NCBI RefSeq assembly: GCF_988243305.1 | Contig: NZ_OZ547136.1 | Strand: one strand, 5' to 3' | DNA: 64,000 nt | Shown here: one piece after another, positions 35,017 through 35,284 of the stretch | Position numbering within the stretch: the stretch's first letter is position 1 | Layout of the letters: each line of letters starts with the position of its first letter | Program-made: the position numbers and the translations under genes | The notes under the pieces: generated by a model | Databases searched by the model: none | What the model saw: the letters and a program-made list of their open reading frames with translations, nothing else | Told to the model about the DNA's origin: nothing

Positions 35017-35202
35017 AAATCGCGGAAGGGATGAAAAAAACAGCGCCTGACGGCGCTGTGTCTGGCATGCCTGCAATCCGGGAAACCGGACCAGGAAAAA
35101 ACTTGCAGGCCATAACAGTATCTACCCACTACCCACTGTTTTTACACCGATAATTTTTCCCCCACCTTTTTGCACTCATTCATATAAAAAATATATTTCC
35201 CC

Positions 35203-35216
35203 ACGAAAACGATTGC
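35203..35216. promoter_or_regulatory. putative PurR operator in the codBA promoter
   Basis: acgaaaacgattgc resembles the PurR box ACGCAAACGTTTGC, about 70 nt upstream of the codB GTG. Confidence 0.55.
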
Positions 35217-35284
35217 TTTTTATCTTCAGATGAATAGAATGCGGCGGATTTTTTGGGTTTCAAACAGCAAAAAGGGGGAATTTC

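Follow-up and report, generated by a model that had tools for sequence, protein, structure and literature searches.

The closest described system to the locus considered here is IS621 itself (Durrant et al. 2024, PMC11208160; Hiraizumi et al. 2024, PMC11208158), an IS110-family element of 1,279 bp. According to Durrant et al. 2024, its left end (LE) measures 191 bp and its joined right and left ends (RE-LE) 298 bp (PMC11208160). The target is recognized by base-pairing with the bridge RNA, which leaves one possible orientation per REP; the loop that binds the target encodes the specificity ATCGGGCCT, and the natural target is given as ATCAGGCCTAC with a CT core (PMC11208160). Published IS621 ends in the donor sequence ACAGTATCT, carries a promoter that is reconstituted on excision, with the RE supplying the -35 box and the LE the -10 box, and encodes a recombinase with DEDD and Ser catalytic residues, as named in the plasmid descriptions of Supplementary Table 2 (PMC11208160). 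REP/BIME arrays have been described as IS targets (PMC1525189; ref. 16 of PMC11208160), and the terminal REP 3' of prpBCDE, where the present copy lies, is a typical IS621 habitat that shows no difference from those descriptions. The second system to be considered is the native codBA control region. NAC control of codBA has been cited (PMC9379551), a PurR motif was found under a K-12 ChIP-chip peak upstream of codB (PMC3159470), and the promoter shows UTP-sensitive start-site switching and, at a homopolymeric tract that closely follows the start, reiterative transcription (PMC12709180).

The window (the whole stretch of 64,000 nucleotides that was analyzed, from contig NZ_OZ547136.1 of RefSeq assembly GCF_988243305.1) contains a complete IS110-family element of 1,279 bp between prpE and codB, as determined by inspection of both junctions. 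The coordinates of all features are collected in Table 1. The interval 35017..35284, to which an initial annotation had drawn attention, comprises the 107-bp right end of IS621 and, after it, the 161 nt with which the codBA upstream region begins in its native, unaltered form.

Table 1 Features of the IS621 copy and its surroundings in the window; a slash marks a junction or the boundary between repeat copies.
Feature	Position	Strand	Basis or remark
prpE, AMP-binding ligase	31877..33763		left neighbour, co-oriented with codB
REP hairpin 3' of prpE	33810..33844	+	fold -23.1 kcal/mol, z = -3.9; matches REP sequences quoted in PMC11208160
Complete IS621	33845..35123	+	junctions ATCAGGCCT/TGTATTAT and ACAGTATCT/ACCCAC; without target duplication
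IS621 left end, 191 bp, predicted to encode the bridge RNA	33845..34035	+	LE length as in PMC11208160
IS621 recombinase gene, 326 aa	34036..35016	+	ORF list, Pfam domains, catalytic residues
IS621 right end, 107 bp	35017..35123	+	size from PMC11208160, coordinates from junctions
GC hairpin, 8 bp, tetraloop	35040..35059	-	terminator scan; z about -4
Second stem-loop, CCTGCAA...TTGCAGG enclosing TCCGG-GAAA-CCGGA	35069..35109	+	predicted, MFE and centroid fold of 35017..35284
TTGCAG, -35 half of circle-junction promoter	35103..35108	+	A-tract upstream of hexamer
Donor left half ACAGTAT and core CT, IS621 terminal bases	35115..35123	+	junction
Host flank ACCCACT/ACCCACT, 7-bp tandem duplication	35124..35137	+	start of conserved codBA upstream block
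NAC-type site ATA-N9-TAT, predicted	35182..35196	+	pattern match; centre about -59 (59 nt upstream of A35248)
PurR operator ACGAAAACGATTGCTT	35203..35218	+	overlaps weak -35 TTGCTT (35213..35218)
codBA core promoter	35235..35255	+	-10 TAGAAT 35235..35240; start region GATTTTTTG 35247..35255, 7 nt further on
codB, cytosine permease, GTG start, 419 aa	35285..36544	+	matches RefSeq annotation; codA next

The recombinase carries the Pfam domains DEDD_Tnp_IS110 (PF01548, E = 1.5e-24) and Transposase_20 (PF02371, E = 2.4e-26), and D11, E60, D102, D105 and S241, that is, the complete DEDD and Ser set, are all present. The initial annotation had placed this ORF, with its stop at 35016, on the same strand as codBA, which the ORF coordinates, the length of 326 aa and the IS110 domains confirm. 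As is characteristic of the IS110 family, the element lacks terminal inverted repeats and a target-site duplication and has a long non-coding LE, and in many genomes RefSeq annotates the gene at this same locus as 'IS110-like element IS621 family transposase'. The element is made up of the 191-bp left end, a 981-bp recombinase CDS and the 107-bp right end, the length of the last being that of the published RE-LE (298 bp) minus that of the LE (191 bp). Within the LE, a -10 hexamer, TATTAT, is found at 33847..33852, a match to the target guide, ATCGGGCCT, at 33908..33916, and a match to the donor guide, ACAGTATC, the donor left half, at 33981..33988; from these motifs, putative target and donor loops of a bridge RNA can be assigned. 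An Rfam scan of the whole window at gathering thresholds returned no family, neither the bridge RNA nor any other within 35017..35284. The copy differs from that of strain IAI1 by 1 nt. At window position 34087 (IS position 243) G is found instead of the A in IAI1, giving D18 rather than N18 in the recombinase.

When length, component sizes, target with CT core, donor end, split promoter and catalytic residues are all compared to published IS621, nothing of substance is different, and the codBA neighbour is the sole particular feature of this copy. By these features, the element at 33845..35123 is an ordinary, canonical IS621, which is already well known and ranks among the best-characterized IS110 elements, with a REP preference that has been published.

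The boundaries of the element could be determined to the base. In longer readings, the left junction is ...CTTATCAGGCCT/TGTATTATCC and the right junction ...CCATAACAGTATCT/ACCCACTACC, with 35123 being exactly the last IS621 base. In silico removal of 33845..35123 yielded an empty site that matches strain 2011C-4251 (H26) in its prpE-codB region at 100% identity over 600 bp. Because of this match, the boundaries can be considered exact and a target duplication absent; indeed, a single CT is retained when IS621 is removed once, and the empty site is restored exactly. Across the removed element, the target reads ATCAGGC-CT-AC, a REP site with a CT core that is the natural IS621 target of PMC11208160. 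The 3' end of the REP at 33810..33844, ATCAGGC-CT, represents the left half of this target with the core dinucleotide and is intact after the insertion.

Our scan also revealed a promoter-like hybrid at the left junction (33824..33852), where the -35-like CTGACG of the REP is separated by 17 nt from the TATTAT of the LE, with 9/12 matches. As IS621 always lands in similar REPs, hybrids of this kind may give integrated copies in general a weak replacement promoter from which bridge RNA and recombinase could be transcribed.

On the other side of the element, the codBA control region was found intact. In codBA numbering, the last IS621 base is -125 and the first host base -124, which places the end of the element about 125 nt upstream of the start. 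Everything recognizable as a control element, namely the NAC-type site, PurR box, -35/-10 elements and GATTTTTTG, is found downstream of 35123. The distance from the IS621 end to the start of the PurR box is 80 nt, in agreement with the initial annotation, which had placed the IS end between the hairpin and the box, about 80 bp from the latter, and to which the end coordinate can now be added. The PurR box predicted there is real, as it is the codB motif under the K-12 ChIP-chip peak and, as in MG1655, lies 82 nt from the codB start (PMC3159470); its end had, however, been set 2 nt too early, at 35216 instead of 35218. The GTG at 35285 was correctly identified as the codB start and agrees with the RefSeq annotation of a 419-aa protein. 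All of the described motifs of the native region are found at K-12 spacing (PMC3159470, PMC12709180), and the window differs from that region only in a 7-bp tandem duplication of ACCCACT at the distal edge and in IS621 beyond it. Occupied and empty alleles share an identical right flank, with no compensatory change in the codBA control region, and the CodB accession WP_000076236.1 is the same in the occupied (IAI1), empty (2011C-4251), scar (2015C-3101; see below) and eight-unit (S1-ESP-03-A) genomes. For the exact start positions, Qi and Turnbough in 1995 are said to have given G7/A8. The position of the NAC-type site at -59 agrees with that at which Muse et al. 2003 reportedly placed the NAC site.

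Two further observations concern this region. ACCCACT is present in two copies in the window and in the compared genomes L002, L003 and L006, while L004, L005, L007 and L008 have one. As the duplication is shared by the empty, occupied and scar alleles of the lineage and is single in the latter four genomes, the ACCCACT duplication that abuts the insertion point is, by this distribution, older than the IS621 insertion. The only plus-strand promoter-like site near codB in our scan was TTTGCA-17-TATATT (35169..35197), which is native host sequence; it overlaps the NAC-type ATA-N9-TAT and is separate from the TTGCTT/TAGAAT promoter.

As the NAC, PurR, -35/-10 and UTP-sensing elements are all downstream of the insertion and unchanged, codBA would most likely be regulated as in IS-free strains. 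We consider it probable that the locus represents a canonical IS621 right end next to an intact codBA region, with no meaningful regulatory effect and an expression effect that would be negligible.

The initial annotation had proposed that displacement of upstream elements could change codBA expression. For this to be the case, the 1.28-kb insertion would have to part codBA from a site that needs to be close by, and that IS621 lies no more than about 125 nt away from the start site should be considered in this regard. Muse et al. in 2003 reportedly saw a secondary NAC footprint with a fragment reaching -120, which would speak for such a distal site; the insertion point (-125/-124) nonetheless lies outside that fragment, and promoter fragments from -83 and from -120 are both said to have been NAC-regulated, the -83 fragment reportedly being enough in vivo. 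The comparison of the prpE-codB spacer in seven IS-free genomes points in the same direction. Spacer lengths were 230, 242, 338, 611, 705, 893 and 900 bp, and all of this variation is due to the number of REP/BIME units, with BIME copy number ranging from 1 to about 8 units among the E. coli genomes (L002-L008); the window has one BIME unit (33764..33844), and IAI1 and the scar allele have two. In every genome, the conserved block begins right after the last REP (...GCCTAC/CCACTGTTTTTACACC...), which is the IS621 insertion point. Since IS621 sits at the edge of a BIME array of naturally varying length, nothing conserved is displaced in this comparison. Displacement is thus contradicted by control elements that are unchanged downstream and by an upstream array that varies from 230 to 900 bp, and we regard this reading as very improbable.

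The same array accounts for the direction of the element. As IS621 recognizes its target by bridge RNA base-pairing (PMC11208160), insertion is strand-specific, and the final REP ahead of codB carries ATCAGGCCTAC on the same strand as codB; given this REP orientation, IS621 must point toward codB. Co-orientation, which we considered as a sign of selection, was rejected in this role, as it follows from REP orientation and strand-specific targeting and is hence uninformative on selection. In L004, L005, L007 and L008, the last REP reads ATCATGCCTAC or TTATTATGCCTAC, without the preferred target, which may help explain the restricted distribution of the insertion. In the sequence of events that we favor, IS621 entered the prpE-codB spacer in its last REP, at ATCAGGC-CT/AC, through its normal bridge RNA-guided, strand-specific reaction, with REP orientation fixing its direction, the same as that of codB, and REP position placing the IS end at about -125.

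What the IS621 right end contributes should also be considered. When the RE and LE are joined, TTGCAG and TATTAT are separated by 17 nt, with the -10 matching TATAAT at 5/6 positions, such that the split promoter can be recognized at the sequence level. The predicted stem-loop at 35069..35109 overlaps the RE -35 hexamer TTGCAG. The donor end ACAGTATCT is also found 9 nt past the recombinase stop in L009, a Burkholderia plasmid (1345..1365; 55% protein identity), and 3 nt past the stop in L015, a Legionella plasmid (1396..1410; 36% protein identity). With the same donor left half in such very short right ends, the 107-bp IS621 RE is, on this comparison, a lineage-specific extension.

Hybrid promoters formed by an IS end and its flank are known in other IS families, and IS1, IS2, IS5, IS10 (through pOUT) and ISAba1 (upstream of bla genes) activate their neighbours by outward or hybrid promoters. 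Like these elements, IS621 presents an end with a -35 hexamer to a downstream operon on the same strand, and one could thus imagine that the RE TTGCAG and a -10-like hexamer in the flank fire toward codB, especially as the RE carries a functional -35 with an upstream A-tract. Unlike in these elements, however, the flank offers no usable -10, the distance to codB's own promoter exceeds 100 nt and the native promoter is intact. At spacings of 16, 17 and 18 nt, the flank reads CCCACT, CCACTA and CACTAC, with 2, 0 and 2 of 6 matches to TATAAT, respectively. A correctly spaced flank -10, as IS-made outward or hybrid promoters have, is thus absent at the right junction, and no plus-strand promoter-like site spanning this junction appeared in the scan. 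Neither the junction hexamers nor the promoter scan gave any sign in the sequence of neighbour activation by IS621, and we consider outward firing toward codB to be extremely unlikely.

A GC hairpin in the RE, with the core cagcgcc-tgac-ggcgctg at 35041..35058, had been described in the initial annotation as lacking a T-run. This holds for the plus strand, where the stem is followed by GTCTGGCAT and no intrinsic terminator can be recognized, but the A7 that precedes the stem on this strand, and thus becomes a T7 after the stem on the opposite strand, was overlooked, as was one further A-T pair that extends the stem to 35040..35059. The consensus scan scored the hairpin as resembling a terminator on the minus strand alone; there, 6 of its 8 pairs are GC and a TTTTTTT tail follows. 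In its 41-nt context, the hairpin folds with -17 kcal/mol and z = -4.0 on the plus and -4.3 on the minus strand, and 0/200 shuffles fold equally well. We infer from this polarity that the hairpin would stop antisense (leftward) transcription entering IS621 from the right flank.

The conservation data add the following. Among seven distant, plasmid-borne IS110 relatives (36-55% aa identity), six lack such a hairpin, and one has an A-rich tract and hairpin after the stop codon, meaning that there is no family-wide conservation in this set. The stem is invariant in a variant IS621 copy of 95.8% identity, and E. coli IS621 copies, being at least 95% identical, differ too little for stem covariation to be seen. 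By these comparisons, conservation gives no support to a minus-strand terminator role. The hairpin could also act as a plus-strand element, stabilizing the 3' end of the recombinase mRNA or weakly terminating it and so insulating codBA. REP-like hairpins without U-tracts do stabilize 3' ends, and the present hairpin is equally stable on both strands and lies 24 nt past the recombinase stop codon. Yet, an intrinsic terminator is defined by its U-run, which here lies on the opposite strand, and a plus-strand role is a tentative possibility that we rather doubt. In the reading that we prefer, the parts of the right end would serve the element and not codB, namely the donor half ACAGTAT-CT, a -35 whose promoter is complete only in the excised circle and a hairpin with its T-run on the opposite strand.

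Read-through was the other route by which, in the initial annotation, codBA expression could be changed. In the form considered here, transcripts from the left-junction hybrid promoter, or from prpBCDE, would cross the bridge RNA region, the recombinase gene and the T-less hairpin to reach codBA and would add expression that escapes PurR, NAC and UTP control. That IS621 and codB are on the same strand, that the scan found no plus-strand terminator-like site in 35017..35285, and that CTGACG-17-TATTAT scores as high as it does at the left junction all speak for such passage. Nonetheless, the strong promoter of the element itself needs the RE -35, which is apart from the LE -10 in the integrated form. 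The RNA is untranslated for 268 nt past the recombinase stop, two stable hairpins are predicted in the RE, and 35097..35234 is untranslated, C-rich and G-poor, as is expected of a Rho loading site. Exposure to upstream transcription would, moreover, not be new, as the co-oriented prpE holds the same position in IS-free strains, and the codBA control region shows no compensatory change. We accordingly rate read-through activation as improbable and a physiologically relevant effect of it as quite unlikely; IS621 read-through would add, at most, a small constitutive background to codBA. The more specific proposal, that exit transcription from IS621 (started at the REP/LE hybrid or in prpBCDE) runs past the T-less hairpin and yields basal codBA mRNA that bypasses PurR, NAC and UTP switching in ~6% of E. 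coli, appears decidedly improbable to us. Among the papers searched, none mentions IS621 together with codB.

As to the C-rich tract at 35097..35234, its C/G ratio is 3.3 to 5.8 in 78-nt windows, and it reaches across the IS end into the distal part of the codBA upstream region, being mostly native host sequence. As a candidate Rho loading site, it could insulate codBA with or without IS621.

In terms of anatomy, the initial annotation was right; its functional inference was mostly unsupported, such that, as a whole, it can be considered partly supported.

The insertion is common in the population. A 600-bp right-junction query (IS621 3' end and codB 5' end) was covered over at least 80% in 305 of 5,426 complete E. 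coli genomes (~6%), many of these matches, including IAI1, being 100% identical and already annotated. About 346 genomes, IAI1 and SE11 among them, have the left junction with a two-unit BIME flank, and the one-unit left flank of the window was found at 100% identity in at least 10. Overall, 1,681 genomes carry IS621 right ends, at 12,235 places in total and with a median of 8 in each carrier. In three genomes (NZ_CP027544.1, strain 2013C-3264; NZ_CP075665.1, STEC2018-553; NZ_CP053234.1, SCU-106), the prpE-side and codB-side junctions do not lie on the same strand and are separated by 3.6 kb to 2.6 Mb, which indicates inversions through IS621 copies.

A further allele was seen in L006 (NZ_CP027221.1, strain 2015C-3101), where the sequence at about 584 of the locus reads ...CGTCTTATCAG-TATCT-ACCCACTACCCACTG..., as compared to ...ATCAGGCCT-ACCCAC in the empty site. 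In its short form, ...CTTATCAG-TATCT-ACCCAC, this corresponds to window positions 33837..33844 joined to 35119..35130, with TATCT being the terminal 5 nt of the IS621 right end. Compared to occupied IAI1, the left flank has 1 mismatch over 591 nt and the right flank 2 over 508 nt, and the allele corresponds to the IAI1 arrangement with 1,278 bp removed (GCCT and IS positions 1..1274). The endpoints of the deletion lie in a CAG that is common to the flank (ATCAG) and the right end (ACAG). The TATCT allele is thus probably a scar left by microhomology deletion of IS621, and not the product of precise CT-to-CT excision by the recombinase. Among the matches listed, 40/40 carry the scar allele at 100% identity, including O26:H11 11368, O111:H- 11128 and O103 RM8385; the number of carriers is estimated at about 107, from 412 records of at least 99% identity, less the 305 occupied genomes, in which the right half matches. 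The presence of the scar allele implies that the IS621 insertion is older than the O26, O111 and O103 EHEC lineages.

As the element and the type of site are already known, and the insertion is annotated in hundreds of RefSeq genomes, what is gained here are the exact boundaries of IS621, a codBA control region that is untouched and an explanation of co-orientation as a side effect of how the target is oriented. The interpretation of the hairpin is also corrected, with its terminator polarity now placed on the opposite strand. Were exit transcription from IS621 to reach codBA after all, cytosine salvage or 5-fluorocytosine sensitivity would be changed across a B1 sublineage, and the scar allele of O26, O111 and O103 would serve as a natural revertant control; even so, read-through would be a further case in which an IS deregulates a salvage operon, and its interest would remain local. 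For expression work, scar alleles offer natural 'revertant' comparators, and the deletion scar may be of interest to those who study the natural turnover of bridge-recombinase elements.
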